From the NCBI GenBank assembly GCA_963805975.1, contig CAWDVR010000001.1, positions 800,001 to 864,000 of the forward strand: a stretch of DNA of 64,000 nt, given 5' to 3'. A program made the translations under genes and the position numbers. A model generated the notes under the pieces. That model saw only the letters and a program-made list of their open reading frames with translations. It was not told the DNA's origin and searched no databases. Shown here piece after piece: positions 18,991 to 40,941 of this stretch. Position 1 is the first letter of the stretch. Each line of letters begins with the position of its first letter. This DNA is from an uncultured Acidobacteriota bacterium (GTDB lineage Bacteria > Acidobacteriota > Thermoanaerobaculia > Multivoradales > SZUA-115).

Positions 18991-19032
18991 CGCAAATCCG
19001 GAGAAGACTCCACTTCGGCCCGCCTCGATAAT
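18991..19032 (+). promoter_or_regulatory. Regulon motif site 1 with -10-like hexamer
   Basis: CGCAA-atc-CGGAGAAGAC, 18 nt, then GATAAT; upstream of the gene at 19111. Confidence 0.7.
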
Positions 19033-19110
19033 CCCAACAAGCAAAGCGTCGGCAGGCCCTCCTCCGGAACAAGAGGGCCGAAAAATTATTCTGGACCAAG
19101 GAGGTCCCAT

Positions 19111-20379
19111 ATGAAGCGAATCGCCATCCTTGCCTTCGCCTTGGCGTTGGCTGTCGTGGGTGCGTTCGTCGCCAGCGGAGGTCCGGTCTCTCCGGACGCC
19201 TCCATGGCGGCCAAGGCCATGCCAGCCTCGCAGCTCTTCGATCCGCTGGGCCAGGAGGCCGACGTGATCTACCTGCTGGCCAACTCCTCGGTGGTCTTCG
19301 GGCCCGACCCGCACGGCCGCAGCGAGGAGATCACTTTCATCGGCCCGGTGACCGTCCCCAAGTGGCCCATGAAGGGCTACGGCCGCCGCGTCCTTCCGGA
19401 CGGCAGCCAGCAGATCGACATCGAGCTGACCCAGTCCGACCTCACGGGTGAGAGCTATCTGATGGGCGGTCCGGTCATCCTCGGCGAGCACCCCGACCTG
19501 CGCTCGCTGGGAACCATCACCGAGCGTCCCGCGTCGAGCATGCGTCACGCCAGCAACAAGGCCGCGGCCACCAACGACGGCACGGCCGCCAGCGCCGAGA
19601 CCGCCGAAGAGGCCGAGGAAGTTCCGGCCGACTTCGTGGTCAAGCGGAAGGTTCTCCTGACCACCGCCAAGGGCATCCTCTACAACGAGACGGCGGTCCC
19701 GGTTCGTGGCCGCGTCGACGCCATTCCCCCGGTCAAGTTCCAGAGCACCCCGACCGGCGTCAACGTGTTCCGCGGCATGGAGCTGCCCGTTGCGCTGCTC
19801 GACAAGACCGGCAACGTGAACGGCTGGTTCTACAGCAAGGCGCACATGGCCTATGCCGTGAAGCCCGCCGCCATCGAGCGTTCCTTCCTCAAGGGCACGG
19901 TCGCGCTGCGCCAGGGCGACCGCACCGAGAACGTCGCGGTCAGCGGTCCGGTGGAGATCCACCACCTCGCGACCGGCACGTCGAAGAACGACGTCGAGTT
20001 CATGATCCTCGCGCTGCGTGGCCGCTCCGAGCTGCTGGGCGGCGACATCATGGTTTCCGAAACCTTCAGCGATCGCGATCACTTCTCCCGCGGCCAACTC
20101 GCGTGGCAGGGCGGGGGCGCCGGCCAGACCACGGCCGACCTCTTCCTCGACCTCTACACGCCGGCCACCAAGCTCACCACCCGCGAGCCGATCCAGCTCA
20201 AGGGCAACGTGAGCGCGTTCCACGAGGTGGGCAACCTGGACAAGGGCAAGCTCAGCCTGCCGATGTATCTCTCGAACGGGCAGTACTCGAGCTCCGGCGC
20301 ACGGACCCTCTATGACGAGTCCGAGAAGCCGGCGGTCGACGTGGTGAGCATCAACTTCAACCTCACCGAGCGGATGTAG
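19111..20379 (+). CDS. Secreted, internally duplicated beta-rich protein of unknown function (first gene of the cluster)
   Basis: AAGGAGG RBS, signal MKRIAILAFALALAVVG; two related segments EEITFIGPV..LTGESYLMGGPVILGE and ENVAVSGPV..LRGRSELLGGDIMVSE. Confidence 0.85.
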   Translation: MKRIAILAFALALAVVGAFVASGGPVSPDASMAAKAMPASQLFDPLGQEADVIYLLANSSVVFGPDPHGRSEEITFIGPVTVPKWPMKGYGRRVLPDGSQQIDIELTQSDLTGESYLMGGPVILGEHPDLRSLGTITERPASSMRHASNKAAATNDGTAASAETAEEAEEVPADFVVKRKVLLTTAKGILYNETAVPVRGRVDAIPPVKFQSTPTGVNVFRGMELPVALLDKTGNVNGWFYSKAHMAYAVKPAAIERSFLKGTVALRQGDRTENVAVSGPVEIHHLATGTSKNDVEFMILALRGRSELLGGDIMVSETFSDRDHFSRGQLAWQGGGAGQTTADLFLDLYTPATKLTTREPIQLKGNVSAFHEVGNLDKGKLSLPMYLSNGQYSSSGARTLYDESEKPAVDVVSINFNLTERM

Positions 20380-20414
20380 CTCGAGCCACCTCGCCCTGGG
20401 AGGGGCCGCGAGCC

Positions 20415-23400
20415 ATGCCGAGGTCCGGCCTCGCTCCAGATCGATCCAAGACCGAAGGCGGGTCCGGCCGCCTTCGTTTTGTTTTTTGGCGGCTGGCGCT
20501 CTGCACGGCGGTGGTGCTGGTCGCGGCTCCGGCCTGGCCCCAGCTCGGCTCCCGGAACGGACCGGCCTCGATCGAGACGCTCGCCGGCGGCGGCCCGGTG
20601 GGGGACGGGGGACCGGCGCTCGCGGCCCGGCTCAACCTGCCGGGCGGCGTGCTCGAGGCGCCGAACGGCGACCTCGTGATCATCGACTTCGGCAACCACC
20701 GCATCCGGCGCGTGGACCGGCAGACTGGGTTGATCGACACCATCGTCGGCACCGGCGAGGCCGGCTACAACGGCGACGGCATCCCGGCGCGGCAGGCGCA
20801 GCTCTCGCGGCCCGAGTACGCCACCTACGGCCCGGAGGGCGACCTCTACATCGCGGATTCCTACAACAACCGGGTGCGCAAGGTGGATCACGCCACGGGC
20901 CTGATCTCCACCGTGGCCGGCAGCGGGGAGCGTGGCGCGGCAGGCGACGGCGGGCCGGCCACCCGGGCGGAGATGCACTTTCCCGAGGGACTGACCCTCG
21001 ACCGCGAGGGCAACCTCTTCATCGGCGACACGGTGAACCGGCGTATCCGCCGGGTGGACGCCAAGACCGGCATCATCACCACCTACGCCGGTTCAGGCGA
21101 GGTCGGCGTCAACCGCGAAGGAACGCCGGCGGCGGAGGCCAAGTTCCTGCGTCTCGCCCGGATCGCCATCGACGGCGCCGGCAACCTCTACGTGGCCGAC
21201 AGCCCCACGCAGCGCATCCTGGTGATCGACGCCGCGACCCGGCAGGTGCGCACCTACGCCGGCACCGGCAAGCCCGGCTTCTCCGGCGACGGCGGGCCCG
21301 CGACCGCGGCCCAGATGCGCTATCCCGAGGGCCTCTTCGTGGCCGGGAACGGCGATCTCTACTTCGCCGACGTGGCCAACCACCGGGTGCGGCGGGTGGA
21401 GGCCAGGACCGGCCTCATCGACACCGTGGCCGGCAACGGCGAGAAGGGCTTCGCCGGCGACGGCGGCCCGGCCCGCGAGGCGCGGCTGTGGAGCCCCGGC
21501 CGCACCTGGCTCGACGCGCAGGGCAACCTCCTGATCTCCGACATCCTCAACTCGCGGATCCGGCGCGTGGACGCCAGGACCGGCGTGATCTCGACCGTGG
21601 CCGGCAGCGGCAGCTTCGGCGACGGCGGCCCGGCCAATCAGGCGGTGCTCTCGGTGCCGGGCGACGTGGTCTATGCGCACGGCAAGGTCTACGTCGCGGA
21701 CTACGGCACGCGGCGGGTGCGGGCCGTGGACCTGGCGAGCGGCGTGATCTCGACCGTGGCCGGCGGCGGCACCGGCTCGGAGGGCGGCATCCCGGCCACC
21801 GAGATCGAGCTGCTGCTGCCCGAGGGCATCGCCGTCGACGGCGGCCGGGCGCTCTACATCGCCGACAACCCGGCGAGCCGGGTGTGGAAGGTGGACCTCG
21901 CGACCGGCATGCTCTCCGTCTTCGCCGGCAGCGGGCAACCGGGCTACTCGGGCGACGGCGGCCCGGCGACGGCGGCCCAGCTCTACCTGCCGGGCGCGGT
22001 CGCCGTCGGAACGGACGGTACGATCTATATCTCCGACTTCGGCAACCAGGCGGTGCGCGTGGTGGATCCCCGGAGCGGCGTGATCCAGACGCTCTCCGCC
22101 GCGCACGCGCCCGGCGAGGGAGACCCGATCCAGGTGGGAGTGGTCAGCCTGGAGTCCACGCCCCAGGGGCTCTACCACTTGGTCCACGATCTCTCCGAGG
22201 TGCATCTTTTCCATCCCGAAGACCGCACGGTCTCCCCGGTTCCGCTGGCGCCAGGGGGCCTGCCGGCGGCGCGCTCCGGCGACACCCAGATGATCGACGT
22301 CGCCGTGCACGGCCGCGAGATCTATCTCGCCGACCCGCTGGGGCACCGCGTGCTCCGCTTCGAGCTGGGCGGCGCCACGGTCGACCTCCTGGCCGGCAAC
22401 GGCGTCCAGGGCTTCGCCGGCGATGGCGGCCCGGCGACCCAGGCCTCGCTCTTCCAGCCCGGCGGCGTGACGGTGAGCGAGGACGGCCGCGAGGTGTTCA
22501 TCGCCGATACCAAGAACCAGCGCATCCGGCGCGTGCGCCTGCCGGCGCCCGAGCGCCAGGCCGCGGGCCGCCGCGGCATCCATTCCTACGAGCTCTCGAA
22601 CGGCCTCGACCTGGTGGTCGCCGTGGCCCCGGAGCTCGATCTGGCAGCGGTGAACCTGACGGCGGCGATCGGCTCGATCGACGATCCGCCGGCGCAGTCC
22701 GGAATGGCGCACCTCTTGGAGCACGTCACCCTGGGCGGCTCGGTGGCGCTGGGCTCGCTCGACCCGCCGGCCGAGGCGGCGGCGCTCGCGCACCTCGACC
22801 GCGCCGATCGCAAGCTCCGCGAGGCGCGGCACGGTGGCGGGTCCTCGGTGGCGCCTGCCGGCACGCCGAGCCAGACCGAGGGGCCCGACCCCGACACCCT
22901 GGCAGCGCTCGAACGGGACTACGGCCAGGCGCTCGAGGCGGCGCGCAAGCTGGCGGAGAGCGGCGAGATCCTGGGCGGGCGCCTGGAGGCCAAGGGAGGG
23001 ATCGGTCTCAACGCCACCACCGGCAACGACGTCACCCAGTACTTCGGCTGGATGCCCGTCGAGCACTTGGAATACTGGCTCTCGCTCGAGGCCGATCGCC
23101 TGCAGAACCCGGTGTTCCGCCGCTTCTACAGCGAGCGCGAGGTGGTGTTGCAGGAGATCGAGGTGCTGACCGGCGGGCGCACGACCCTCCAGGACCGGGT
23201 GATGCAACAGGTCTTCCCCGGCGGGCCGCAGGCGCAGCCGCCGGCCGGCGATCCGGCGGAGACGCGCGACATCGACCGGCCGCTGGCGCTCGACTTCTTC
23301 TCCCGCTTCTATCGGCCCGAGAACCTGGCGCTGGCGGTGGTGGGCAACGTCGATCCCGCGGTGGTTCGGCGGCTGGCCGAACGCCATCTCGGCGCTTGGA

Positions 23401-23996
23401 AACCGGCCGCGGCCGGCGGGCCGCTGCCGGCGCCGAGCGAAAGCTCCACGGCGGCGCCGCGTGTCGCCAAGTTCAACAGCGTGCGCGCGCCGTTCGTCTA
23501 CTTCGCCTTTCCCAGGCCTGCTCTCACCGGGCAGGAGAAGGCCGGGCTCGAGGTGCTCGCCGAGCTCTTCAACTCGCCCGAGCTCTCGCCCTTGAAGCGG
23601 CGCCTGCTGGGCGAGGCAGGGATCGCCTGGGACGTGTTCGCCGAGGCCCTCTACCCCTCGCAGAAGCGGCCGGGCGCCTTCCTGCTACGGGTGAGCGGCA
23701 ACGGCGGGGTCGAGCACGAGGCGTTGATCCGCGAAGCCACCGGCGTGCTGCGGGCGCTCGATTCGACGCCCGAGGAGGATCTCGCCGGCGCGATCCTGCA
23801 AGCGGAGCTGCGCCTCGCGACCGAGCTCGACGATCCGCCCACGCTCGCCGCCCTTCTGGCACAGAATCAGGCGGTGCACGGCAACTGGAGCCTGCCCTTC
23901 GACCGGCTGGAGACCCTGCGCCACCTGACGCCCGCCGAGGTGCGCCGCACGGCGCAGAAGGTGCTCCAAGTGCCCGCGGACGGAGGAGGAAGCTGA
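20415..23996 (+). CDS. NHL-repeat beta-propeller fused to M16 zinc peptidase
   Basis: Signal-like N-terminus; many GDGGPA..A.L NHL repeats; C-terminal SGMAHLLEH (HxxEH), LNATT, EREVVLQE. Confidence 0.88.
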   Translation: MPRSGLAPDRSKTEGGSGRLRFVFWRLALCTAVVLVAAPAWPQLGSRNGPASIETLAGGGPVGDGGPALAARLNLPGGVLEAPNGDLVIIDFGNHRIRRVDRQTGLIDTIVGTGEAGYNGDGIPARQAQLSRPEYATYGPEGDLYIADSYNNRVRKVDHATGLISTVAGSGERGAAGDGGPATRAEMHFPEGLTLDREGNLFIGDTVNRRIRRVDAKTGIITTYAGSGEVGVNREGTPAAEAKFLRLARIAIDGAGNLYVADSPTQRILVIDAATRQVRTYAGTGKPGFSGDGGPATAAQMRYPEGLFVAGNGDLYFADVANHRVRRVEARTGLIDTVAGNGEKGFAGDGGPAREARLWSPGRTWLDAQGNLLISDILNSRIRRVDARTGVISTVAGSGSFGDGGPANQAVLSVPGDVVYAHGKVYVADYGTRRVRAVDLASGVISTVAGGGTGSEGGIPATEIELLLPEGIAVDGGRALYIADNPASRVWKVDLATGMLSVFAGSGQPGYSGDGGPATAAQLYLPGAVAVGTDGTIYISDFGNQAVRVVDPRSGVIQTLSAAHAPGEGDPIQVGVVSLESTPQGLYHLVHDLSEVHLFHPEDRTVSPVPLAPGGLPAARSGDTQMIDVAVHGREIYLADPLGHRVLRFELGGATVDLLAGNGVQGFAGDGGPATQASLFQPGGVTVSEDGREVFIADTKNQRIRRVRLPAPERQAAGRRGIHSYELSNGLDLVVAVAPELDLAAVNLTAAIGSIDDPPAQSGMAHLLEHVTLGGSVALGSLDPPAEAAALAHLDRADRKLREARHGGGSSVAPAGTPSQTEGPDPDTLAALERDYGQALEAARKLAESGEILGGRLEAKGGIGLNATTGNDVTQYFGWMPVEHLEYWLSLEADRLQNPVFRRFYSEREVVLQEIEVLTGGRTTLQDRVMQQVFPGGPQAQPPAGDPAETRDIDRPLALDFFSRFYRPENLALAVVGNVDPAVVRRLAERHLGAWKPAAAGGPLPAPSESSTAAPRVAKFNSVRAPFVYFAFPRPALTGQEKAGLEVLAELFNSPELSPLKRRLLGEAGIAWDVFAEALYPSQKRPGAFLLRVSGNGGVEHEALIREATGVLRALDSTPEEDLAGAILQAELRLATELDDPPTLAALLAQNQAVHGNWSLPFDRLETLRHLTPAEVRRTAQKVLQVPADGGGS
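20453..20487 (+). terminator. Intrinsic terminator-like hairpin with U-tract
   Basis: cgaaggcgg-gtccgg-ccgccttcg (perfect 9-bp stem) then ttttgtttttt; lies within the 5' end of the 20415 ORF. Confidence 0.75.
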
Positions 23997-23998: not shown

Positions 23999-25333
23999 AT
24001 GACGGGTGCCCTCCTGGGGCTCGTCCTTGCCGGCTGGGCCGTGGTGCCCGCCACGGTCGAGGCGCCGCCCGGCCTGGCGGCTTTCGAGCAGCTGACCCTG
24101 GACAACGGCCTCCGGGTGCTGCTCGGCACCCCGGCGCGGCCGGTGGAGCTCACCGAGGCCCTGCTCGTGGTCGAAGCGGGAACCCGCTCGCAGGGCTCGG
24201 GTGAGGAAGAGAGCGCCCGTGTGGCCGCCGAGGCCTTCTTGGGCGGCAGGCTGGCCGGCCAGGAAACGACGATCCGGCGCCAGCTCGCACGATCCGGCAT
24301 CACGCTGGACTACACCGTGGGCCGCGAGGTCGCGGTGTTCCGCTTCGCGGCGCCGGAGCGGCAGAGCGGCGCGCTGGTGCGGGCGCTGGCCGGGTTGCTG
24401 CGCCGCGAGAGCCCGGCCCCGGCCGTCTGGGAACAGGCGGTCGAGGCGCGGAAGCTCGCTGCCGCCGCCGAGGAAGCCGATCCCTGGCAGCGTTCGCTCG
24501 AGACGCTCGACGGCCTCCTCTGGCACGAGCCCGAAAGCGATCGCCGAGACGCTGGCGCCGCCCCCGACCTCGCCCGCCTCGAAGCCTTCCGCACCGCAAC
24601 CTACCGGCCGGACCGCATGGTGATCGCCCTGTGGGGCAAGGCCTCGGCGGCCGAGCTCGGCGCGCTGGTACGCGACGAGCTCGCGGCCCTCGCCACGGCG
24701 ACCGGCGGTGCGCCGGAGCCGGAGCCGGCCGAGCCCGAGCTGCGGCCGGCGGGTGGACTCCGTTGCCTGACCGATCCCGCCGCCCAGCCACCGGCCCTGC
24801 TGGTCGGTTTGGGCGCCGAGCTGCCGGACGACCGCGCTTTCTACGGCTGGCAGCTCCTGGCCCACATCCTGGGCGCCAGCCACACCTCGCGCCTCCACGA
24901 GCGCCTGCGGGTGCGCGAGCCCTTCGTCTACACGGTGGAGGCCACCTGCAGCCCGGTGGGCAGCCGCGGGATGACGCTCCGCATCAGTGCCCAGACCGCG
25001 GAGCTGGAGCGCGCTCGCCAGGTGGTGATGGAGGAGCTGCGGCGCCTGGTGAGCGAAGAGGTGTCGCAGCAGGAGCTGGACTTGGCGCGCGCCATCTTCA
25101 GGAGCCGGCTGCTCCTCGACCAGGGCTCGTTCCGCGACCAGTTCTACCGCCGGGCGCTGGCGCTGCTCTCCCCTCGGCCGCCCCGGGACCTGGCGCCCGC
25201 CGCGGTGGAGCTCGACGCGCTGACCCCGGCCTCGCTCCTCGCCATTCTGCGCCGCACGCTGCGGCCGGATCTCGCGACCACAGTCGTCGTCTCCGCCGCG
25301 GCCGAGCCGCTCTGCGAAAGGGCGCCGTCGTGA
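23999..25333 (+). CDS. M16 peptidase-like subunit lacking HxxEH
   Basis: LDNGLRVL, YRPDRMVIAL, ILG..TSRLHERLR M16 features; no zinc motif. Confidence 0.8.
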   Translation: MTGALLGLVLAGWAVVPATVEAPPGLAAFEQLTLDNGLRVLLGTPARPVELTEALLVVEAGTRSQGSGEEESARVAAEAFLGGRLAGQETTIRRQLARSGITLDYTVGREVAVFRFAAPERQSGALVRALAGLLRRESPAPAVWEQAVEARKLAAAAEEADPWQRSLETLDGLLWHEPESDRRDAGAAPDLARLEAFRTATYRPDRMVIALWGKASAAELGALVRDELAALATATGGAPEPEPAEPELRPAGGLRCLTDPAAQPPALLVGLGAELPDDRAFYGWQLLAHILGASHTSRLHERLRVREPFVYTVEATCSPVGSRGMTLRISAQTAELERARQVVMEELRRLVSEEVSQQELDLARAIFRSRLLLDQGSFRDQFYRRALALLSPRPPRDLAPAAVELDALTPASLLAILRRTLRPDLATTVVVSAAAEPLCERAPS

Positions 25334-26436
25334 GCCCGGCGGTACGGCGCCGGCTGGTCTGGAGCGGGCTGATCTGGGGCCGGCTGGCTTGTGGGCTGAG
25401 CCTGGCGCTGGTCGCCGGCTCGTCCTGGTGGGCCGTGGTCGCCGGCGGCGACCCGATGGACCTCGCGTCCGCGCACGCCCTCTTCCGCCTGCCGCCGGTC
25501 GGGGCGCCGGAGGAGAACCCGATCACCGAGGCCAAGGTGAAGCTGGGGAGGAAGCTTTTCTTCGATCCCGGCCTGTCGGCCGACGGCTCGGTGAGCTGCG
25601 CCTCCTGCCACCGGCCGGAACGCTTCTTCGCCGACGACCGGCCGCTCTCCTTCGGCATCGGCCACGCGGCCGGCGACCGCAACGTGCCGACGCTGCTCAA
25701 CGCGGTCTACTCTTCGAGCCTGATGTGGGACGGCCGCTCGACCAGCCTCGAGGACCAGGTCCGCTATCCGGTCACCCACCCGAACGAGATGAGCATGACG
25801 CCGGAGAAGGTCGAGGACTACCTCGCGGCGAGCCCGGAGTACACGGCGCTCTTCCAGGAGGCCTTCGACGAGGACTGGATCGGCTGGGAGCAGATCTGCC
25901 AGGCGCTCGCCGCCTTCGAGCGCACGCTCCTCTCCGGCAACGCGCCCTTCGACCGCTTCCTGGCCGGGGATGCCGGCGCCGTGCCGCCGGCGGCGCGCCG
26001 CGGCTGGGAGCTGTTCCGCGGCAAGGCGGGCTGCGTGAGCTGCCATCACCACAGCGCCGAGCAGCCGTTCTTCACCGACTTCGAGTTCCACAACGCGGGC
26101 GTGGGCTGGTCGGCGGAGAAGCCGGACCTCGGCCGCTACCAGATCTCCAAGGCGCGCGAGGACAAGGGTGCCTTCCGGACCCCCAGCCTGCGCAACGTGG
26201 CGATGACCGCGCCCTACATGCACGACGGCAGCCTGCCGGACCTGGCGGCGGTCCTCGAGCACTACGTCAAGGGAGGGGAGCCCAACCCCCTCCTCGACCT
26301 CCGCATCCGCCCGCTGGACCTGAGCGCGGGAGAGAAGCTGGACCTGATCGCGTTCCTGGAGTCGCTGACCGGCGAGATGAGCTACACGCCCGACCCGACG
26401 ATGGTCACGGCGAGCCGGGGCGCTCCCGACCCCTGA
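25330..26436 (+). CDS. Di-heme cytochrome c peroxidase family enzyme (MauG/MbnH-type)
   Basis: CASCH and CVSCH, LMWDGR, FRTPSLRNVAMTAPYMHDG with Tyr 14 residues after the His; GTG start overlaps the upstream stop. Confidence 0.9.
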   Translation: MSPAVRRRLVWSGLIWGRLACGLSLALVAGSSWWAVVAGGDPMDLASAHALFRLPPVGAPEENPITEAKVKLGRKLFFDPGLSADGSVSCASCHRPERFFADDRPLSFGIGHAAGDRNVPTLLNAVYSSSLMWDGRSTSLEDQVRYPVTHPNEMSMTPEKVEDYLAASPEYTALFQEAFDEDWIGWEQICQALAAFERTLLSGNAPFDRFLAGDAGAVPPAARRGWELFRGKAGCVSCHHHSAEQPFFTDFEFHNAGVGWSAEKPDLGRYQISKAREDKGAFRTPSLRNVAMTAPYMHDGSLPDLAAVLEHYVKGGEPNPLLDLRIRPLDLSAGEKLDLIAFLESLTGEMSYTPDPTMVTASRGAPDP

Positions 26437-30831: not shown

Positions 30832-31628
30832 GAGGCACTCTCCGTTCGGGTCTCGCTCTCCTGCTTCTGGGCGCCCTGCTTCGTGGTGGGCTGGCGCTCG
30901 CCGGCGCGCCCCCCGCGGCCGAGCCCGCCGATGGCCTCGAGATCATGCGGCGGGTCAACGCGCGGACCCGGGGCCAGGCGGCGAGCCTGCGCCTGGAGAT
31001 GATCCTGCGCGACGAGAAGCGGGGCGAGTTCAAGAAGCACATCGACGGCCTCCGGCGGCTCTACCCCGACGGCTATCGCACCAGCTACGTCATCACCGCG
31101 CCCGATCACGAGCAGGGGATCGGCCTGCTGCTCTCCGAGGACCCGGCGCAGCGCGGGATGTGGATGTACTTCCCCGCCAACCGCCAGCTCCTGCACGTGG
31201 CCAGCCGCGGGCTCTCGGCGCTCGCCAGCGACTTCAGTTGCGAGGACCTGCTGGTGAGCGTGCCGCTCGCGGACTACGAGTTCCGCCTGCTCGAGCGCAC
31301 CACCCTCGACGGCCGCCCGGTCTCCAAGGTGGAGATGAAGCCCGCCACCGAGCGCCTGCGGCTGGAGCTGGGGTTCTCGCGCGCCATCGGCTGGGTGCGC
31401 GAGGACATCTGGCTGATCGCCCGCGCCGAGTACGAGGACCAGGCCGGCCAGGTCTTCAAGACCTTCCTCGCCGACGATGTGCGGCTGGTGGACGGCGTGT
31501 GGACCGTGCAGCGGTTCTCGATGCGCAATCTGCGCGCCCGCCACGCGACCGAGGTCACGGTGACCGAGATCGACTACTCGGCCAAGCCGCCCGCGGAGCG
31601 CTTCGCGCCCGCCACGTTCCACGAGTAG
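30828..31628 (+). CDS. LolA-like outer-membrane lipoprotein-sorting protein
   Basis: TTG start overlapping the MMPL stop; signal; WMYFPA, SDFSCEDL, EYED..GQVFKT, DGVWT motifs typical of MMPL-associated LolA-like proteins. Confidence 0.8.
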   Translation: MRGTLRSGLALLLLGALLRGGLALAGAPPAAEPADGLEIMRRVNARTRGQAASLRLEMILRDEKRGEFKKHIDGLRRLYPDGYRTSYVITAPDHEQGIGLLLSEDPAQRGMWMYFPANRQLLHVASRGLSALASDFSCEDLLVSVPLADYEFRLLERTTLDGRPVSKVEMKPATERLRLELGFSRAIGWVREDIWLIARAEYEDQAGQVFKTFLADDVRLVDGVWTVQRFSMRNLRARHATEVTVTEIDYSAKPPAERFAPATFHE

Positions 31629-31647: not shown

Positions 31648-33843
31648 CTACAGCGGCAGCTTCACGGCGCGCAGCCGGCGATTCAGGCTGTCCGTGATGT
31701 AGAGGAAGCCGTCGTGGCTGAAGGCCAGGCCCCGCGGCAGGTTGAGCTGGGCCGCTCGCGCGGGCCCGCCGTCGCCGGCGTAACCGCGCACCCCGTTGCC
31801 GACCACGGTCTCGATCTGGTGGGACGCGGCGAGGATGCGGCGTACGGAGTGGTTGTTGGTGTCGGCGAAGTAGAGGTTTCCCTCGCCGTCGAAGAGCAGG
31901 CTGTCCGGGTGGCTCAGCTCGGCCTGCTCCGCCGGCCCGCCGTCGCCGGCGTAGCCCCGCACGCCGGTGCCGGCGAAGGTTCTGATCCGGCCCCCGGCGT
32001 CGATCCACCGGATGCGGTGGTTGAGCCGATCGGCGAAGTAGAGGCCGCCGGCCTGGTCGAAGGCGATCGAGGTCGGCCCCTGGAGGCGGGCGTCGCGCGC
32101 GGGCCCGCCGTCGCCGCCGAACCCGGCCTCGCCAGTGCCGGCCACGGTCGAGAGGCGGCCCTGCGCATCCACCTTGCGGAGCGAGTGGTCCGCCTCGCAG
32201 GAGATGTAGATCTCCCCGGTCCCCGGATGGCGGGCGGCGCGCAACGGCCCGGCCAGGCGCGTCGCGGTCGCCGCCCGGCCCTCCGCGAACACGGTCGCGC
32301 CCAGGTCGCCGGCGAAGGTGGCGACCCGCAGGCCGTCGTTGGTCATGCTCACCCGGCGGACCAGGTTCGCCCACTGGTCGGTGATGTAGAAGTTCCAGTC
32401 GCCGTCGAGCAGGATGTCGGTGGGCCGGGAGAGCTCGGCGAGATGCGGCGGCCCGCCGTCACCGCCGCTGCCCGGCGTGCCGGTCCCCATCAGGGTTTCC
32501 ACCACGCGCTCCGCCATCAGGATGCGGCGCACGGCGTGATTGCCGGCATCGGCCAGGAAGACGTTGCCGAAAGCGTCGACGGCCACCGGTCCGAGCTCGG
32601 AGAACTCGGCCTCCTTGAGCGGCACGCGGCTCGGCGCCGCGGCGCCCCCGGCGAAAGTGGTCGCCCGGCCCCCGGCGACCACCAGCACCCGGTGGTTGGC
32701 TTCGTCGGCGAGGTAGATCACGTCGCCGCGGCCGATCGCGACGCTGCCCAGCCGAGCCTCCTCGCGACCGGCGGTGAAGATCACGCGGTCCTCGCCTCCC
32801 CGATCGACCACGTGCAGCGAGCCGTCGAGGCGGTTGGAGTAGACGATCTCCTGCGTCGAGGTGATCCCCAGGCCGGCGATCGAGCCCCCAGCCGCCGGCC
32901 GGCTGGCGGCCACGGTCCCGATCCGGCCGGTCAGCCGGTCGATCTTGCGGATGCGCCCGTTGCCGGAGTCGAGCACGTACACGTTGCCGGTGGCATCGAG
33001 GTCGAGCTCGGTGGGAAAGGAGAGCAGGGCCTCGCGGGCCTGCCCGCCGTCGCCCGCGAGCCCGGCGGCGCCGGTGCCGGCGACGGTGCGGATCTCGCCC
33101 GGCCGCACCTCCACGGCGCAGACCACCACCGGCGAGGTTCCGCGGTTGACCACGCGGACGCGGTGGTTGCCCGAGTCGGCTAGAAAGAGGATGCCGAGGC
33201 CGTCGACGGCGACCCCGGAGGGGTAGTTGAGCTCGGCGTCCACCGCCGCGCCGCCGTCGCCGCTGAAGTGGCCGCGGGCGATCGTCTCGGCGGTGGCCGG
33301 CTCGCTGGGGAGGCTCTCGGGGGCGACCCCGCGCACCCCCAGGCCGGCGACGGTACGCACCCGCTGGCCGTCCGCGGCGACCGCCCGGATGCGATGGTTC
33401 TGGGTGTCGGCGACGAAGATCTCGCCGGTCCGCGGGTCGAGGGCGAGGGCCGACGGCGCGTGGAACGAGGTCTCGAGGCCGGGCCTGCCGTCGCCGTTGA
33501 AGCCGGCGCTCTCGCGTCCGGCCCAGGGCGTCACTGTGGACTCGGTACCGGTACCTTCGGCACCGGTTCCTCCGGGCTCGATGCGGAACACCATCCCGCG
33601 GGAGGTGTCGAGCACGTAGAGGGCGCCGGAGAAGAGGTCGGCGGTCAGCCCGGTGGCACCGTAGAAAGCCAGACCGCCGGCCGCGAGGCTCGCCGGCAGG
33701 GCACGCCCCCCGGCCACGGTGGCGATGATGCCGGGGCGCAGGCTCCGCCACGGCGGGCTGGGCAACGCAGCCAGTTGCAGGAGGCAGAGGAGACAGGCTC
33801 CCAGGAGCAGGCAACGGCCGCGCACCGGGCCTCCTTTCGCCAA
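31648..33843 (-). CDS. Secreted NHL-repeat beta-propeller protein
   Basis: Hydrophobic N-terminus; many GDGGPA and ADxxNHR repeats. Confidence 0.88.
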   Translation of the reverse strand: MAKGGPVRGRCLLLGACLLCLLQLAALPSPPWRSLRPGIIATVAGGRALPASLAAGGLAFYGATGLTADLFSGALYVLDTSRGMVFRIEPGGTGAEGTGTESTVTPWAGRESAGFNGDGRPGLETSFHAPSALALDPRTGEIFVADTQNHRIRAVAADGQRVRTVAGLGVRGVAPESLPSEPATAETIARGHFSGDGGAAVDAELNYPSGVAVDGLGILFLADSGNHRVRVVNRGTSPVVVCAVEVRPGEIRTVAGTGAAGLAGDGGQAREALLSFPTELDLDATGNVYVLDSGNGRIRKIDRLTGRIGTVAASRPAAGGSIAGLGITSTQEIVYSNRLDGSLHVVDRGGEDRVIFTAGREEARLGSVAIGRGDVIYLADEANHRVLVVAGGRATTFAGGAAAPSRVPLKEAEFSELGPVAVDAFGNVFLADAGNHAVRRILMAERVVETLMGTGTPGSGGDGGPPHLAELSRPTDILLDGDWNFYITDQWANLVRRVSMTNDGLRVATFAGDLGATVFAEGRAATATRLAGPLRAARHPGTGEIYISCEADHSLRKVDAQGRLSTVAGTGEAGFGGDGGPARDARLQGPTSIAFDQAGGLYFADRLNHRIRWIDAGGRIRTFAGTGVRGYAGDGGPAEQAELSHPDSLLFDGEGNLYFADTNNHSVRRILAASHQIETVVGNGVRGYAGDGGPARAAQLNLPRGLAFSHDGFLYITDSLNRRLRAVKLPL

Positions 33844-33878: not shown

Positions 33879-34005
33879 ATTCTCCGGGCGCGCCTTGCTC
33901 GAGGTCTTATCCGCCCTTGCGCGGGCTCCCCGGACCGTGCGATGCGGCGGTCGAAGCGGCGGCGCAATCCTGGAGGTGACAGTCATGGCCCTCCTTGCAT
34001 ACCTT
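33879..34005. promoter_or_regulatory. Divergent promoter with regulon motif sites 2 (-) and 3 (+)
   Basis: Minus: CGCAA-ggg-CGGATAAGAC (33921-33904), 19 nt, GAGAAT. Plus: CGCAA-tcc-TGGAGGTGAC (33963-33980), 19 nt, TACCTT. Confidence 0.65.
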
Positions 34006-34130: not shown

Positions 34131-34973
34131 ATGAGAACAGTCGGGTTCGGTAGCGCGCTCAAAGCCGTCCTCGTTCTCGGCCTGCTCCTGGCGCCGATGG
34201 CGATCGGCGACGAGGTGCCGGAGAAGGCTCTCTGGGATCAATGGACCAAGAAGCTGAACACCATCGACCAGCAGCTCAAGGCGGGCCAGTGGGACGCCGC
34301 CGGCCCGCTGGCCCGGGCACTTTCCGATCAGATGGCGAACGGCAGCGGCGGCACCCTCGGCTACAAGCGGATCTACGCCGACCAGCTCGACGGCGCCCGC
34401 ATCGGCCAGGGCTACCTCGCGGAGGCGATGGCGCTCGGGCGCGTGGGCGCCTATCTCGCGCTCTGCAATGCGGCCGAGGGCAAGGAGCAGGAGGCCCGCT
34501 GGTACTGGTACGCGGCGCAGAACCTCGACAACCGCTGGATCGCGACCGACCTGACGGCCTACGGCAAGCCCGGAGCCTTCCTCGCCAAGCACCGCATCAA
34601 GCCACGGGACGAGCAGCACCCCGAGGTGGACGTGCTCGATCCGATCGTGCCCGAGGGCGCCAAGAAGGCCCGCTTCCAGGAGCCGGAGCGCACGCACGTC
34701 GTCTATCCGCTCCGGCCGCACGACCTCGCTGGCCTCGACCGCTTCTCGGAGGCCCTGTTCGTCCAGGTGACGGTGGAGCAGGACGGAACCCTCACCCAGC
34801 CGGTGCTGGTCGACGGCTACGAGTATCCCAGCCTGATGTACAAGGTTTTCGAAGCGATGAGCGGCTGGCGGTATCGCCCGGCCACCTACGACGGCAAGGC
34901 GATCCCCTTCCGCTACGTGGTTCCCGTGGTGTTCAAGGACGACCGCCCCGAACAGTCAGCGGTCTTCTTCTGA
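34131..34973 (+). CDS. Secreted helical protein with TonB C-terminal-like domain
   Basis: GAGGAGG RBS, signal; C-terminal VTVEQDG...WRYRPATYDGKAI..V.F TonB_C-like pattern. Confidence 0.75.
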   Translation: MRTVGFGSALKAVLVLGLLLAPMAIGDEVPEKALWDQWTKKLNTIDQQLKAGQWDAAGPLARALSDQMANGSGGTLGYKRIYADQLDGARIGQGYLAEAMALGRVGAYLALCNAAEGKEQEARWYWYAAQNLDNRWIATDLTAYGKPGAFLAKHRIKPRDEQHPEVDVLDPIVPEGAKKARFQEPERTHVVYPLRPHDLAGLDRFSEALFVQVTVEQDGTLTQPVLVDGYEYPSLMYKVFEAMSGWRYRPATYDGKAIPFRYVVPVVFKDDRPEQSAVFF

Positions 34974-35000: not shown

Positions 35001-35579
35001 ATGAGAAAGCTCACTCTTCTCTGCCTCGTTGCGGTGGCCGTCGTTAGCCTGGTCACGGCCTCGGCCTACGCGCACAAATGCACCACCTGTCCCTCGTTCA
35101 AGAACACCAAGTCGCTAGCCGGCCAGAACCTGGCCAAGCTCCAGGGCTGCTGGCGGGGCACCAGCCGTGACGGCGTGCGCTCGGAGGTGTCCTTCGAGAT
35201 GGGCAGCGACGGCACGGCGCTGCTCGAGACGCAGTGGGTGGACGACTACCCGCCGGTCTACACCATGTACTACATGGACGGCAGCGGCATCTCGGCCCAT
35301 CACTTCTGCTCGATGGGCAACCAGGTCCGGATGAAGGGCAGCGCGGCCGCCGACGGCGGCATGCTGAGCTTCCGCTACCTGGACTCGACGAACATGCCGA
35401 GCGCCAACCAGCCGCACATGACGGGCGTGGTCATGAAGTTCGGGGACAGCAGCCACATCACGATGGAATGGGCCTCGTTCTGCGACGGCGGCGACGGCGA
35501 CGAGATCAACTCGTTCAGCTACGAGCGCGTCACCACCGGCTGCACGGTCGGTTCCGCCAAGAGCTGGTCTCAGAAGTAA
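35001..35579 (+). CDS. Secreted His/Cys-rich putative beta-barrel protein, paralog 1
   Basis: AAGGAG RBS; signal ending AYA, then HKCTTC; GCW, HHFCSMGNQVRM, PHMT. Confidence 0.85.
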   Translation: MRKLTLLCLVAVAVVSLVTASAYAHKCTTCPSFKNTKSLAGQNLAKLQGCWRGTSRDGVRSEVSFEMGSDGTALLETQWVDDYPPVYTMYYMDGSGISAHHFCSMGNQVRMKGSAAADGGMLSFRYLDSTNMPSANQPHMTGVVMKFGDSSHITMEWASFCDGGDGDEINSFSYERVTTGCTVGSAKSWSQK

Positions 35580-35710: not shown

Positions 35711-36295
35711 ATGAAGAAGCTCACTGTTCTCTGCCTCGTTGCGGTGGCCGTCGTCGGCCTGGTGACGGCCTCGGCTCACGCGCACAAATGCACCACCTGC
35801 CCCTCCTTCAAGAGCACCAAGTCGCTCGCCGCCCAGAACCTGGCGTCGCTTCAGGGCTGCTGGCGCGGCGCCAGCCGCGAGGGCGTGCGCTCGGAGGTCT
35901 CCTACGAGATGGGCAGTGACGGCACGGTGCTGCTCGAGACGCAGTGGGTGGACGGCTACCCACCGGTCCACACCGTCTACTACATGGATGGCACGGACCT
36001 CGCGGCCCACCACTTCTGCTCGATAGGCAACCAGGTGCGCCTGCGGGCGAAGTCCTCTCGCGAAGGCCGTCGGATCGATTTCCAGTTCCAGGATTCGACC
36101 AACGTGCAACGGCCTCGCCGCAAGCAGCCGCACATGACCGGCACCACGGTACAGTTCCAGGGCAAGGACCACATCACGGTCGACTGGGCTCTGTCCTGCG
36201 GCGACGGCACCGGCCTGATCACGAATACCTTCACCTACCAGCGGGTGGTCGAGGGCTGCAAGGTCGACACCCTCAAGCGCTGGTCGGAGAGGTAG
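35711..36295 (+). CDS. Secreted His/Cys-rich putative beta-barrel protein, paralog 2
   Basis: AAGGAG RBS; near-identical N-terminus to paralog 1; HHFCSIGNQVRL. Confidence 0.85.
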   Translation: MKKLTVLCLVAVAVVGLVTASAHAHKCTTCPSFKSTKSLAAQNLASLQGCWRGASREGVRSEVSYEMGSDGTVLLETQWVDGYPPVHTVYYMDGTDLAAHHFCSIGNQVRLRAKSSREGRRIDFQFQDSTNVQRPRRKQPHMTGTTVQFQGKDHITVDWALSCGDGTGLITNTFTYQRVVEGCKVDTLKRWSER

Positions 36296-36377
36296 GCCTG
36301 GAACTCGGCGCGCTCGCCGCCGCGCCTGACCGCCGGCGCGATGCGAGCAGAACGGCTGGCCCATCCTGGGCTGATCC

Positions 36378-38828
36378 ATGAAGGGGCTCGCCAAGGATCT
36401 CGCGCTCGCGCTCCGCGCGCTCCGCCGCCGGCCCGGTCTCACGCTCGCGGCGGTCCTCTCCCTGGCCTTGGGGCTCGGCTCGAGCATCGCGATCTTCCGC
36501 TTGGTGAGCGCCGCCTTCTTCCGGCCGCTCGGGGTGGGGGAGCCGGCCTCGGTGGTCGCGGTCTACGTCGCCCGCCAGCAGCGGCCGGACGACTACCTTT
36601 CGATCTCCTATCCCAACTTCCTGGATCTGGCCGAGGGCCAGCGCACGCTCTCGTCCTTCGCCGCCTACCAGTGGCTGCGGGTCACCCTGCTCGAAGGCGA
36701 GAGCACTAAGCGGAGCTACATCCAGATCGTGCGGCGTGAGTTCTTCGACGCCCTCGGCGTCCGGCCCGCCCTGGGCCGGCTGTGGGAGCCGGCCCAGGAT
36801 GCGCCGGCGGGCGGTTCGCCGATCGCCGTGCTGTCGCACGACTTCTGGCGGCGCGAGCTGGGCAGCGACCCGGCCGTGCTCGGCAAGACCGTCCGCGTCG
36901 CCGAGCGGGCACTGACCGTGGTGGCGGTGATGCCCCCGGGGTTCAAGGGCACCCGCACCTTCACCGGCGCCGAGCTCTGGGTGCCGATGGGCTACTACGC
37001 CGAGGTGTCGCCCTACGCCGCGGACTTCCACGAGCGCGGGGCGCAGATGTTCGAGATGGTCGGCCGCCTGCGCCCCGGCGTCTCCCTGCACGAGGCGGAG
37101 CTCGACCTCCAGGCCGGAGCCGCGCGGCTGGCCGGCCAGTACCCGGAGGTCAATCGGGAGCAGGGCATCCGGATCTTCCCGCTCTCCGAGACCGCCATCG
37201 AACCCTGGCAACGCCCGCTCTACGTGCGTGGCGCGATCATGATCGCGGGCGTGATGGGCCTCCTGCTGCTCATCGCCTGCGGCAACGTCGCGAGCCTGCT
37301 GCTGGCCCGCGGCCTCGAGCAGCGCCGCGAGGTCGCCATCCGCCTCTCGCTCGGCGCCGGCCGCGGCCCGCTGCTACGACAGCTCCTGGCGCAGAGCCTG
37401 CTGCTGTCCCTGGCCGGCGGCGCGCTCGGCCTGCTCCTGGGCCTGCGCGCCCCGGCACTCCTCTGGCGCTTCCGGCCGCCCGACTTCTTCACGGCGGACG
37501 CGTTGGACCTCAGCCTGGATGCCGAGGTTCTCTGGGTGACCCTGGCGCTGTCGCTCCTCACCGGCCTGGTGTTCGGCCTCGTGCCGGCGCTGCAGTCGAC
37601 CCGGCCACAGCTCGTGCAGGCGCTCAAGGAAGAGTCCGTGGCCGGCGCGGGGCGGCGCCGGATCGCGCTGCGCGATCTGCTGGTGGCCACCCAGGTGGCG
37701 CTCAGCTTCCTGGCGCTGGCCGGCGCCGGGCTGTTCGCCAAGAGCCTGGCGCGTGCGCACACGGTCGACCCCGGCTTCGAGGCGGACCGCATCCTGGTGC
37801 TCACCTACGGGCTCGCCGGCCAAGCCGGGAGCGCCGCCGAGCACGAGGGCCTGAACCAGCGGGTCCTCGACGGGTTGGCGAGCCTGCCCGGCGTCGAGCG
37901 CGCGGCTCTCTCCTCGTACCAACCGCTGACCGCGGGGCCTCCCGTCTACTGGCGCGTGGAGGCCGAGGGCGAGGCGCCCGCCGGGCAGCCCTCGCGCCGC
38001 ATGGTCATGACCACCGCGGTGACTCCCGGCTACTTCGCGACGCTCGGCATCCGCCTGCTCGCCGGCCGCGACCTCGGCGTGGCGGACCGACCCGGCACGC
38101 CGCTGGTCGCGGTGGTCAACGAGGTGCTGGCCCAGCGGCTGTGGCCGGAGGGCGACGCGGTGGGACGCCGGCTGCGGGTCGCCGAGAACGGCAGCGTGCT
38201 CGAGATCGTGGGGGTGGTGGCGGCCTCCAAGCACCACAGCGTCACCGAGGCGCCGCGCTCCGGCCTCTACCTGCCGCAGCAGCAGTGGCCGCGCCCGGAC
38301 GTGACCGTGCACCTGCGGACGGCGGGCGACCCGGCAGCGCTGATCCAGCCCGCGCGCCGGCGGCTGCAGGATCTCGCTCCGACCTTGACGCCCTACGCCG
38401 TGCAGCCGATGCGGTCCACGGTCAACGCCTCCCTGTGGGCGCAGCGCCTGGGGGCCGCCGTGCTCGGTCTCCTGGCGCTCCTGGCCCTGGTCCTGGCGGT
38501 GACGGGCGTCTACGCCGTGCTGTCCTACTCGGTCCGGCAGCGGTTCCGCGAGATGGCGATCCGCCTCGCCCTCGGCGCGCCGCCGGAGGCGGTGCTGAGG
38601 CTGGTGCTCCGGCGGGCGATGGTCGCCGTGGGAGTCGGGGTCCTCTGTGGCCTGGTCGTCGCCGTGGCCGCCGGGCGCTTCGTGGCGAGCCTGCTGTTCG
38701 GCATCCAGGCCAGCGATCCGCTGACTCTCGCCGAGATCGGCGTCCTGCTCGCCGCCGTGGCCCTCGCCGCCGGCTATGGCGCGGCGCGGCGGGCGACGCG
38801 CGTGGATCCGCGGGAGGCGCTGCGATGA
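36378..38828 (+). CDS. ADOP/MacB-like duplicated ABC permease (no ATPase adjacent)
   Basis: LALGLG, LLLIACGNVA, REVAIRLSLGAGR, REMAIRLALGA, VDPREALR. Confidence 0.92.
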   Translation: MKGLAKDLALALRALRRRPGLTLAAVLSLALGLGSSIAIFRLVSAAFFRPLGVGEPASVVAVYVARQQRPDDYLSISYPNFLDLAEGQRTLSSFAAYQWLRVTLLEGESTKRSYIQIVRREFFDALGVRPALGRLWEPAQDAPAGGSPIAVLSHDFWRRELGSDPAVLGKTVRVAERALTVVAVMPPGFKGTRTFTGAELWVPMGYYAEVSPYAADFHERGAQMFEMVGRLRPGVSLHEAELDLQAGAARLAGQYPEVNREQGIRIFPLSETAIEPWQRPLYVRGAIMIAGVMGLLLLIACGNVASLLLARGLEQRREVAIRLSLGAGRGPLLRQLLAQSLLLSLAGGALGLLLGLRAPALLWRFRPPDFFTADALDLSLDAEVLWVTLALSLLTGLVFGLVPALQSTRPQLVQALKEESVAGAGRRRIALRDLLVATQVALSFLALAGAGLFAKSLARAHTVDPGFEADRILVLTYGLAGQAGSAAEHEGLNQRVLDGLASLPGVERAALSSYQPLTAGPPVYWRVEAEGEAPAGQPSRRMVMTTAVTPGYFATLGIRLLAGRDLGVADRPGTPLVAVVNEVLAQRLWPEGDAVGRRLRVAENGSVLEIVGVVAASKHHSVTEAPRSGLYLPQQQWPRPDVTVHLRTAGDPAALIQPARRRLQDLAPTLTPYAVQPMRSTVNASLWAQRLGAAVLGLLALLALVLAVTGVYAVLSYSVRQRFREMAIRLALGAPPEAVLRLVLRRAMVAVGVGVLCGLVVAVAAGRFVASLLFGIQASDPLTLAEIGVLLAAVALAAGYGAARRATRVDPREALR

Positions 38829-40288
38829 CCGCGCGCCGGCGAATCGCACTTCTTTTCGCTCTTCTGGCCTGCCTCGCCGCGACGGGAGGCTGCCTCCACC
38901 AGCGGCCGTCGGCCCGCCCGGCGCCGGACCCCTCGGCCGCAGGCGGCGGCGAGGACTGGCCCCGCTTCCTGGGCCGCCGGGGGGACGGCAAGTCACTCGA
39001 GCGCGGCCTGCTCGCCGAGTGGCCGGCCGCAGGCCCTCCCGTGCTGTGGTCCAAGCCGGTCGGCCGCGGCTACAGCCAGGTGGCGGTGGCGCAGGGGCGC
39101 CTCTTCGTCTTCGAGCGGCGCGGGGACCAGGCGCGCCTGAGCTGCTGGCAGAGCGAGACCGGCGCCGAGCTGTGGCGCGCCGAGTACGCCACCGACTACA
39201 AGGGGCTGATCGAGGAGAAGGGCGGCCCGATGGCCAACCCGCTGGTGGACGGCGACCGCGTCTACACCTTCGGCGCCGAGGGCCGGCTGCGCTGCCACCG
39301 CGTGGAGGATGGGAACCTGCTCTGGGAGGTCGACACCGCCTCCCGCTTCGGCGTCGTCCAGAACCTCTACGGCGCCGGCTCGACGCCCTGGGTGGAAGGG
39401 GAGCTGCTGATCGCCATCATCGGTGGCAGCCCCCCCGGCAGCCCCGGCATCCACTCGGACAGGGTCGAGGGCAACGGCAGCGGCATCGTCGCCTTCGACA
39501 AGCGGACCGGCGAGGTGCGCTACCAGGTCTCGAACGAGCTGGCGAGCTACGCCAGCCCGCTGGTCGCCCCGGTCGGCGGCCGTCGTCTGGGCTTCGCCTT
39601 CACCCGCGGCGGGCTGCTGCTCTTCGAGCCACGGCTGGGAAAGGTACAGAGCTTTTTCCCCTGGCGCGACGTCGCCGGCAAGGGCGTCAACGCCGCGACG
39701 CCCGTGGTGGTGGACGACACGGTCTTCATCACCGAGGCCTACGGGCCCGGCGGCGCGCTGCTGCGCGTCGCGCCGGGCGGGTTGGAGCTGCTGTGGAAAG
39801 ATCCGCCGGGGCGCGGGCGCAGCCTGGCCGCGCACTGGTCCACGCCGCTCCATCACCGCGGGTATCTCTACGGGGTGAGCGGCCGCACCGCCGCCGAGGC
39901 CGAGCTCCGCGCGGTGGAGCTCCGCACGGGTCGGGTGGCGTGGCGGGAGAAGATCCGGAGCCTCGCGACGCTGCTCTACTTCGACGAGAAGCTCCTGGTG
40001 GTCACTGAGTACGGCCGCCTGATGCTCGTCGCGGCCCACCCCCGGCGCTTCGAGCTGCTGGCCGAGGCCGATCTGGGGGAGGAGAAGAAAGAGGCCGGCG
40101 CCGCCGAGGGCGAGCCGCCGGTGGCGCGGGCGCTGCTCAAGTACCCGGTGTGGAACGCGCCGGTGCTGGCGCACGGCCTGCTCTACGTGCGGGGGTGGGG
40201 GAGGCTGGTCTGTTTCGATCTGCGCGCCGGCGATCCTAGTGCCAGACGTCCGAATGGCGAACGTCACAGCCCTCGACCACCCGAGTGA
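38825..40288 (+). CDS. PQQ-binding-like beta-propeller lipoprotein
   Basis: ATGA coupling; DWPRFLG, TGAELW, SYASP, NAPVLAHGLLYVR; overlaps the convergent gene by 53 nt. Confidence 0.85.
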   Translation: MTARRRIALLFALLACLAATGGCLHQRPSARPAPDPSAAGGGEDWPRFLGRRGDGKSLERGLLAEWPAAGPPVLWSKPVGRGYSQVAVAQGRLFVFERRGDQARLSCWQSETGAELWRAEYATDYKGLIEEKGGPMANPLVDGDRVYTFGAEGRLRCHRVEDGNLLWEVDTASRFGVVQNLYGAGSTPWVEGELLIAIIGGSPPGSPGIHSDRVEGNGSGIVAFDKRTGEVRYQVSNELASYASPLVAPVGGRRLGFAFTRGGLLLFEPRLGKVQSFFPWRDVAGKGVNAATPVVVDDTVFITEAYGPGGALLRVAPGGLELLWKDPPGRGRSLAAHWSTPLHHRGYLYGVSGRTAAEAELRAVELRTGRVAWREKIRSLATLLYFDEKLLVVTEYGRLMLVAAHPRRFELLAEADLGEEKKEAGAAEGEPPVARALLKYPVWNAPVLAHGLLYVRGWGRLVCFDLRAGDPSARRPNGERHSPRPPE

Positions 40289-40805
40289 AAGGAAAGAGCT
40301 GGCGCAGCTCTTTGTGGTTCTGGTGCAGGCCCCAGTCGATGTCCAGGTGGTCCGGGTCCCGGAAGGTGAAGTTGATGTAGGTCATGTGGTCGTCGTCTTC
40401 GCGGCTCTTGATGTTGGTGGCGTCGACGAAGGCGAAATGCAGAACCTTGGGGTCGGTCTGCGGCTGGGCCCGGAAACGGATCTGGCTGCCGTAGGAGCAG
40501 AAGTGGTGGATCATCGGCGTCTCGCCGTCGATATAGATGGCGGAGTACATGGGCACCTGGCCCTGCTGCTCCAGGTACTCGATGATCACCGTGCCGTCGC
40601 TCGACAGGTCGTAGGATACCCGCGAAGGCGCCCCCCAGGGGTTCTTACCCACCCAGCAGCCGTTGAGCGACGCGAGCAGCTTGATCGCCGGGGTGTTGGT
40701 GATCTTGAAGGAGGGGTTGCCGGGAAACTCCTGCGCCCGCGCCGCGGTGGAGGAGAGAGCGAGGGCGGCGGCGAAACCGAGCGCCGCGCAGGCGGTTTTT
40801 CTCAT
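40236..40805 (-). CDS. Secreted putative beta-barrel protein, paralog 3
   Basis: Signal; shares PSFK, GCW, HHFCS, HMT and RVVEGC with the 35001/35711 proteins but lacks HKCTTC. Confidence 0.82.
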   Translation of the reverse strand: MRKTACAALGFAAALALSSTAARAQEFPGNPSFKITNTPAIKLLASLNGCWVGKNPWGAPSRVSYDLSSDGTVIIEYLEQQGQVPMYSAIYIDGETPMIHHFCSYGSQIRFRAQPQTDPKVLHFAFVDATNIKSREDDDHMTYINFTFRDPDHLDIDWGLHQNHKELRQLFPFTRVVEGCDVRHSDVWH

Positions 40806-40823
40806 GCGTCACCTCTGGCCCCA

Positions 40824-40941
40824 ACTATGCGGACCGGGGGCCTCCGAGTCTTATCCGAGGTTGCGGAGCTCCTGCCGCGAGGCCGACGGCAGGCCATCGC
40901 GCAAGCAGGGAGATGACCCCGCACCGGCGAGGCTCCATACT
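40824..40941. promoter_or_regulatory. Divergent promoter with regulon motif sites 4 (-) and 5 (+)
   Basis: Minus: CGCAA-cct-CGGATAAGAC (40865-40848), 18 nt, CATAGT. Plus: CGCAA-gca-GGGAGATGAC (40900-40917), 18 nt, CATACT. Confidence 0.7.

Follow-up and report, generated by a model that had tools for sequence, protein, structure and literature searches.

We herein describe a conserved promoter element in a 64,000-nt stretch of DNA (hereafter, the window) from an uncultured Acidobacteriota bacterium (assembly GCA_963805975.1, contig CAWDVR010000001.1, positions 800,001 to 864,000), in which five copies of a short box stand ahead of the transcription units of a gene cluster. The element itself is real, and it is very probable that the five boxes are single binding sites of an AraC-family regulator encoded in the same cluster (45589..46398, minus strand), which would activate the five promoters; both the binding and the activation are deduced from sequence comparisons. 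By homology, the protein belongs to the SgcR2 type of regulator known from enediyne biosynthetic clusters. Likely new, as far as the searched literature tells, is a box for the SgcR2-type regulon together with an unusual acidobacterial gene set, while the two-box type of AraC site as such is known.

The pattern CGCAA-N4-GGAKRWGAC occurs exactly five times in the window, at 18991(+), 33921(-), 33963(+), 40865(-) and 40900(+), and these are also its only exact matches in the whole 5.36 Mb genome. The original prediction, which had named these five copies, is borne out here, as it is in the -10-like hexamers that it had placed 18 or 19 nt after the motif and in its claim that each copy points into a gene start, which all five do from a distance of about 60-170 nt. 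Box 1 (18991..19008, +), the top-scoring site genome-wide, overlaps a -35-like AAGACT and is separated by a 17-nt spacer from GATAAT (19027..19032, +); Box 2 (33904..33921, -) overlaps AAGACC, with an 18-nt spacer to GAGAAT (33879..33884, -); Box 3 (33963..33980, +) is the weakest box, yet has the best -35 (GTGACA), with an 18-nt spacer to TACCTT (34000..34005, +); Box 4 (40848..40865, -) overlaps AAGACT, with a 17-nt spacer to CATAGT (40824..40829, -); and Box 5 (40900..40917, +) overlaps ATGACC, with a 17-nt spacer to CATACT (40936..40941, +). Exact matches averaged 0.01 in 100 shuffles of the window (maximum 1), a figure that alone overstates significance because the pattern was fitted to its own five sites, so that independent tests are needed. 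With up to two mismatches allowed, six matches were found in the window versus 2.79 expected, the extra one being in coding sequence. A model built without the window sites placed four of the five boxes within the top six box-plus-10 matches (box and -10 scored together) genome-wide; Box 3 ranked 15th with a score of 18.7, within the range of reversed controls (top 20.4). Scanned over the window, a model from Streptomyces sites only ranked two boxes first and the other three within the top nine. In a soil metatranscriptome, contigs from a close relative cover 19055-20557 (depth 38) and 34050-34825 (depth 8) and start just downstream of the predicted -10s; they come from one study with no silent-stretch control, establish neither a start site nor expression, and carry no weight in our argument. 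The second-best box-plus-10 match genome-wide lies outside the window, at C1:667879 (-) (L139:7879), 139 nt ahead of a tandem array of three paralogs from a family of large, apparently secreted proteins; it had no counterpart at 20 homologous loci of other genomes and is a candidate sixth target only. A weak look-alike at 16885(+), upstream of a carbonic-anhydrase-like open reading frame, was rejected for its wrong -10 spacing.

Column counts describe the box as an asymmetric 16-nt element with two unlike ends, GCA and RRAGAWG, and the overall consensus, MGCA(A)-N4-RRAGAWG, is looser than the pattern originally given. Its relaxed consensus upstream of acidobacterial unit-first genes is MGCAA-N4-RRAGAAG, with core-column counts that are inflated, the 38 underlying sites having been chosen by likeness. 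The terminal AC, which the original prediction had included in the motif, falls outside the conserved core (present in 26 and 24 of the 38 sites, respectively). The exact pattern is also a poor scanner: genome-wide in five genomes it gave 17 matches versus 1 in the control, and 8 of these 17 had no cluster gene nearby. The box has a fixed orientation, and its final bases form a poor -35-like hexamer that in the window stands 17-18 nt before a -10 of the form xAnnnT. The -10 columns played no part in picking the sites; nevertheless, the A of xAnnnT concentrates at two adjacent motif positions, 38 and 39, in the acidobacterial set (19 and 13 of 38 sites; other offsets, at most 5) and at position 39 in 13 of 19 sites from the Streptomyces C-1027 cluster. 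A position at the usual -35 would also suit a box that is the -35 region for an extracytoplasmic function (ECF) sigma factor, such as the one encoded at 6723-7289, with the AraC protein merely travelling with the cluster. An ECF gene indeed lies 12 kb upstream in the window, and in or near two orthologous clusters. We nevertheless hold this explanation to be highly improbable, given that the -10 is sigma70-like (among 57 best-fit hexamers, A in 54 and T in 54), that a GCA is conserved about 10 nt upstream of the -35 hexamer, that the C-1027 cluster, where the box is densest, has no annotated sigma factor, and that the box tracks the AraC gene in the held-out genomes described below.

Searches with DUF6004, the protein encoded first after Box 1, revealed the same set of genes, in rearranged order, at 7 loci in genomes and 26 in metagenomes; neither the window cluster nor DUF6004 was found in 60 related genomes. 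Homologs from named organisms, together with the ADOP permease, suggest a host within the Thermoanaerobaculia of the Acidobacteria. The regions upstream of the orthologous unit-first genes were selected by gene identity and scored with a model trained solely on the window and C-1027 sites: 35 of 38 contained a box scoring above 11, whereas none of 38 coding controls did and shuffles averaged 0.84 (maximum 4). The 38 regions, which include near-identical loci and were chosen after many matches had been seen, are not 38 independent tests, and this has to be set against our interpretation along with the points gathered further below. Moreover, five of the six named genomes with a DUF6004 cluster were searched whole, and all five possess a full-length AraC ortholog (E value at most 7e-90) as well as an enediyne-type polyketide synthase (PKS). 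Some genomes hold two DUF6004 copies (L004/L005, L013/L015 and L016/L024), which have identical-looking promoter boxes and flank the PKS cassette.

The regulator itself has an N-terminal double helix-turn-helix (HTH) domain (Pfam HTH_18, 79 bits, cut-off 33.6). When SgcR2 was searched against this genome, the window AraC protein was the best match (38% over 244 aligned residues, E 2e-39; next match, 2e-4), with homology spanning the full length, including the C-terminal domain. By homology, therefore, the protein is of the SgcR2 type of enediyne-cluster regulator, which complements its original assignment to the AraC family. The first 3 plasmid matches of the window protein that were inspected were all Streptomyces enediyne clusters. 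On the C-1027 plasmid SGLP1, the AraC gene starts 25 bp after a StrR-like gene; we identify it as sgcR2 because this position fits the described placement of sgcR2 relative to the StrR-like gene (PMC2657911). Of the four C-1027 regulators compared (StrR-like, AraC, TylR-like and HTH/HxlR-like), SgcR2 alone has homologs in this genome or at the acidobacterial loci, and among 20 window proteins compared with 13 plasmid loci only the AraC protein gave matches, apart from one weak acyltransferase match.

The same box is found in the Streptomyces clusters. De novo motif discovery by expectation maximisation in 42 upstream regions of the C-1027 cluster alone yielded tgcGCA-N5-GgAGatG, with a log-likelihood of 144 versus 60-65 for 3 shuffles, and 19 of the 42 regions scored above 17, mostly 83-141 nt ahead of the start. 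In three further Streptomyces enediyne clusters the box was present in 8/24, 5/19 and 4/17 upstream regions (shuffle maximum 2), and a Serratia cassette without the AraC gene had it in 0/14 regions. C-1027 boxes precede the gene annotated as glucose-1-phosphate thymidylyltransferase (sgcA1 by annotation) and a unit that probably contains the tyrosine aminomutase gene (sgcC4 by annotation); transcripts of both sgcA1 and sgcC4 are reported to fall when those of sgcR1R2 fall (PMC2657911). The sgcR1R2 upstream region of C-1027 has no box. Related regulators are described in similar terms: UcmR7 is homologous to SgcR2, itself cited as a positive regulator (PMC8210685), and TnmR7 is needed for tiancimycin production, which its deletion abolishes, and for transcription of tnmD and tnmO, the tnmD transcript dropping more than 350-fold and TnmR7 being deduced to promote tnmDFGH (PMC9464397). 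TnmR7 was insoluble, which left no electrophoretic mobility shift assay (PMC9464397), and in the accessible text of that paper and its supplement no promoter sequences were found. Our system resembles those of SgcR2, TnmR7, UcmR7 and DynR7 in the full-length homology to SgcR2, the N-terminal double HTH domain and the box shared with the C-1027 cluster, TnmR7 being likened through published descriptions rather than by sequence; it differs in its acidobacterial host and in regulated genes of an envelope type that lack clear homologs in the Streptomyces loci examined. Neither a DNA site for SgcR2-type proteins nor this cluster was described in the searched literature, which excludes most subscription papers, so that a site may have been published; likewise, no paper on DUF6004 was found in the searchable literature.

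Genomes held out of training allow the AraC gene to be told apart from its neighbours. A sample of 301 genomes of the class contained the E5 cassette marker in 11, the AraC gene in 7 and DUF6004 in 2, counts in which kin are not independent and the AraC gene was scored on 8 candidates per genome, with three negatives rechecked fully. In five held-out AraC-bearing genomes, in which DUF6004 is lacking or was not found, 7 regions (274 kb) contained 14 box-plus-10 sites between them, and every genome had one or more. No such site was found in 201 kb made up of 6 cassette regions from 5 AraC-lacking genomes and a second, unlinked cassette; the unlinked cassette of a further genome does carry the box. 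These patterns of presence and absence indicate that the AraC gene, rather than the DUF6004 set or the PKS cassette, is the correlate of the box. Hence, the claim that the box is the site of the AraC protein at 45589-46398, which was part of the original prediction, gains support from the held-out co-occurrence and from the Streptomyces clusters, since those with the same box share only this AraC gene as a well-conserved gene; that the protein binds there is probable.

Another regulator, either global or cluster-situated (StrR-, TylR-, HxlR- or LuxR-type), might bind the box and co-travel with the AraC gene. Co-occurrence cannot fully separate linked genes, some distant AraC homologs lack the box, and LuxR genes lie ahead of the cassette in one acidobacterial genome. 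We consider this improbable, as at E 1e-5 this genome has no homolog of the other three C-1027 regulators, many sites would be expected of a global factor whereas about six strong box-plus-10 sites exist in 5.36 Mb, the cassettes of AraC-lacking genomes have no boxes, and the asymmetric two-part site resembles known AraC/XylS sites (PMC4514859). Several observations do weigh against the AraC protein as the reader of the box. Three of the 38 orthologous regions have no site (two TonB C-terminal domain genes and one acyltransferase gene), and second AraC paralogs in two acidobacterial genomes have no match to the relaxed pattern nearby. Among the held-out AraC-bearing genomes, one has a cassette contig free of boxes and three show a single site near the AraC gene. 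Distant full-length AraC homologs at five non-enediyne loci have the box in 0/15, 0/18, 0/20, 0/21 and 2/11 regions, and neither recognition helices nor an AraC tree separates box-positive from box-negative homologs. Additionally, window genes other than the AraC gene have no clear homolog in the Streptomyces enediyne loci examined. The surroundings of the distant homologs (L096-L100) comprise glutamine synthetase plus adenylosuccinate lyase sets, a meroterpenoid-like set and an ATP-grasp/PKS set, and the Paenibacillus one stands beside a glyoxalase gene; only L097 has the box.

At class II promoters, the activator site overlaps the -35. We propose that the five promoters, of the sigma70 type and belonging to a predicted enediyne-type accessory gene cluster, are activated by the AraC protein, one molecule of which would place its two HTH motifs on two sub-boxes beside RNA polymerase and thereby compensate for a weak -35. 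This would be class II activation, at about -49 to -33, analogous to that at MarA/Rob/SoxS-type sites. Two HTH motifs of AraC/XylS proteins are known to read two sub-boxes, monomeric members reading a single site some 15 bp long, and described sites include XylS TGCA-N6-GGNTA, AraC TAGC-N7-TCCATA, Rob GCAC-N7-CAA and SoxS GCAC-N7-TAAA (PMC4514859, PMC5481539). The window box is like these in being asymmetric, about 15-16 bp long and composed of a GCA-containing 5' box plus a second box, but the second box and its spacing differ (GCA-N5-GGAGA). It also differs from the tandem dimer sites of XylS and AraC, being present in single copy with no direct repeat: within 40 nt upstream of the 38 acidobacterial sites there was no second copy (best score 7.0). 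Thus, it would be closer to the monomer-type MarA/Rob/SoxS sites than to those of XylS or AraC. Overlap with the -35 is also a common position for repressors, and the AraC protein has a C-terminal domain of unknown function, so one may imagine that it blocks the -35 until a pathway molecule releases it. To repression we give hardly any credence: the fixed orientation, the fixed distance from the -10 and the poor -35 hexamers suit an activator, and loss of TnmR7 abolishes production (PMC9464397) while SgcR2 counts as positive (PMC8210685).

The activated units would cover most of the cluster. Behind Box 1 follow, all on the plus strand, the genes for the DUF6004 protein (19111..20379; two predicted beta-barrels, DynF-like), an NHL-repeat protein fused to an M16 peptidase-like domain with an HLLEH motif (20415..23996), an M16 inactive-domain protein (23999..25333), a di-haem MauG/MbnH-like protein with two CxxCH motifs that scores under the NCBIfam cut-offs (25330..26436), an NHL-repeat protein (26444..28441), an MMPL/RND transporter (28474..30831) and a LolA-like protein (30828..31628). 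Box 2 precedes a lone NHL-repeat gene (31648..33843, -; start codon uncertain). The unit behind Box 3 (plus strand) encodes a TonB C-terminal domain protein (34131..34973), two small barrel proteins of a family with an HHFCS motif (paralog 1, 35001..35579; paralog 2, 35711..36295), an ADOP-family duplicated permease that scores above the cut-off (36378..38828) and a PQQ-like/BamB-like beta-propeller (38825..40288). Box 4 leads into paralog 3, a small 10-stranded barrel protein (40236..40805, -), and Box 5 into a di-haem MauG/MbnH-like domain fused to NHL repeats (40958..43957, +; start uncertain). A sixth unit contains the AraC gene, a glyoxalase/bleomycin-resistance-like gene downstream of it (45195..45545, -) and an Acyltransferase_3 gene (43940..45178, -). 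The original prediction, in which the motif ties the whole cluster together, therefore holds for five of the six transcription units and fails for the last, because no box lies upstream of the AraC or the acyltransferase gene in this genome. Many of the cluster proteins have hydrophobic N-termini (judged by eye), suggesting export. The three small-protein paralogs (35001-36295, 40236-40805) share conserved cysteines and an invariant HHFCS; the predicted fold, a 10-stranded barrel, is about equally similar to nitrobindin, RsfG and the spirocyclases OssO/OlmO, a PDB sequence search returned no significant match and an Atlas search only unnamed clusters.

What the regulated genes do is less certain. 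We regard it as probable that, across the cluster family, they handle the product of an enediyne PKS cassette, and on balance we lean towards the same for this genome. In two genomes and three metagenome contigs, the orthologous cluster contains the cassette or borders on it, and in a third genome the cassette is next to the AraC gene. PKSE, thioesterase, E3, E4 and E5 are absent from the window; this genome has the complete set at C3:326310-336438, with a PKSE 49% identical to SgcE, and a divergent AhpD-like gene accompanies the cassette (C3:325025-336438). The first regulated protein also points to enediynes. DUF6004 has 422 aa and is predicted, in a model with a mean predicted local distance difference test (pLDDT) score of 80, to form two barrels behind a hydrophobic N-terminus that by eye suggests export. 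The best structural match of this model is DynF (Sgd15, dynemicin Orf15; Foldseek E 1.4e-6; Z 16.8, root mean square deviation 2.9, 161 aligned residues), from which it differs in its two predicted barrels, its length and an identity of 19%. TnmF we take to be another DynF homolog. Sgd15 is described as essential for sungeidine (PMC8725005), and tnmF belongs to the unit that TnmR7 is deduced to promote (PMC9464397).

Against this link to enediynes stands, in the first place, the nature of the DynF match, since 8-stranded barrels of this kind are common (the next match, OmpA/OmpW, has Z 13.0); with a broad DUF6004 profile DynF came first in the PDB at a non-significant E of 0.11 and on the other half of the protein. 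A narrow profile and two single distant homologs gave no significant PDB match, and DUF6004 queries found nothing on plasmids. Furthermore, the cassette of this genome is on another contig and without a box, its E4 is split between two reading frames, and E5-type cassettes occur in 11 of the 301 class genomes mostly without DUF6004; taken together, these features suggest that the C3 cassette may serve another pathway. It is thus a possibility of some weight, if not the one we favour, that regulation proceeds as described but the cluster here is an orphan or repurposed envelope module (redox, lipid handling) unlinked to the cassette. Cassettes occur without this cluster even in a genome of the same family, and a ketosynthase (KS) tree, with an unresolved backbone, groups the PKS of this genome with two other unlinked ones, apart from those in clusters. 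On the other side, a PKS is present in 6 of 6 cluster-bearing genomes tested versus the E5 marker in 11 of 301 class genomes, the unlinked cassette of another genome carries the box, and the deduced targets of the tiancimycin AraC protein are units like tnmDFGH and not core PKS genes (PMC9464397).

Beyond the handling of a cassette product, we tentatively speculate about a Gram-negative, acidobacterial enediyne-type pathway with late steps outside the cytoplasm, for which the box would be a cross-phylum signature of SgcR2/TnmR7-type control. The MMPL and LolA-like proteins would export the polyene made by PKSE, and its maturation would fall to the exported two-barrel DynF-like protein, the di-haem MauG/MbnH-like oxidases, the NHL propellers and the small barrels; just as speculatively, such an extracytoplasmic gene set would be unlike that of the actinomycete clusters examined. 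Enediyne compounds are reported only from Actinobacteria and ascidian extracts in a survey (PMC10308959), and the regulon suggests that Acidobacteria harbour an enediyne-associated gene set not yet characterised. SgcR2, TnmR7 and UcmR7 are positive regulators of clinically relevant enediyne pathways, whose regulons the box makes directly testable, with about 19 predicted targets in the C-1027 cluster. Additionally, the box marks cluster boundaries and can join split clusters, as the unlinked cassette that carries it illustrates. Two minor observations concern neighbouring matters. A Sinorhizobium symbiotic plasmid (L094), not among the AraC matches listed, encodes an enediyne-type KS (45% to SgcE) and E4. 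In the window, the ECF sigma factor gene (Pfam Sigma70_ECF) is directly followed by one for a Ser/Thr kinase with TPR repeats (6723-9708).

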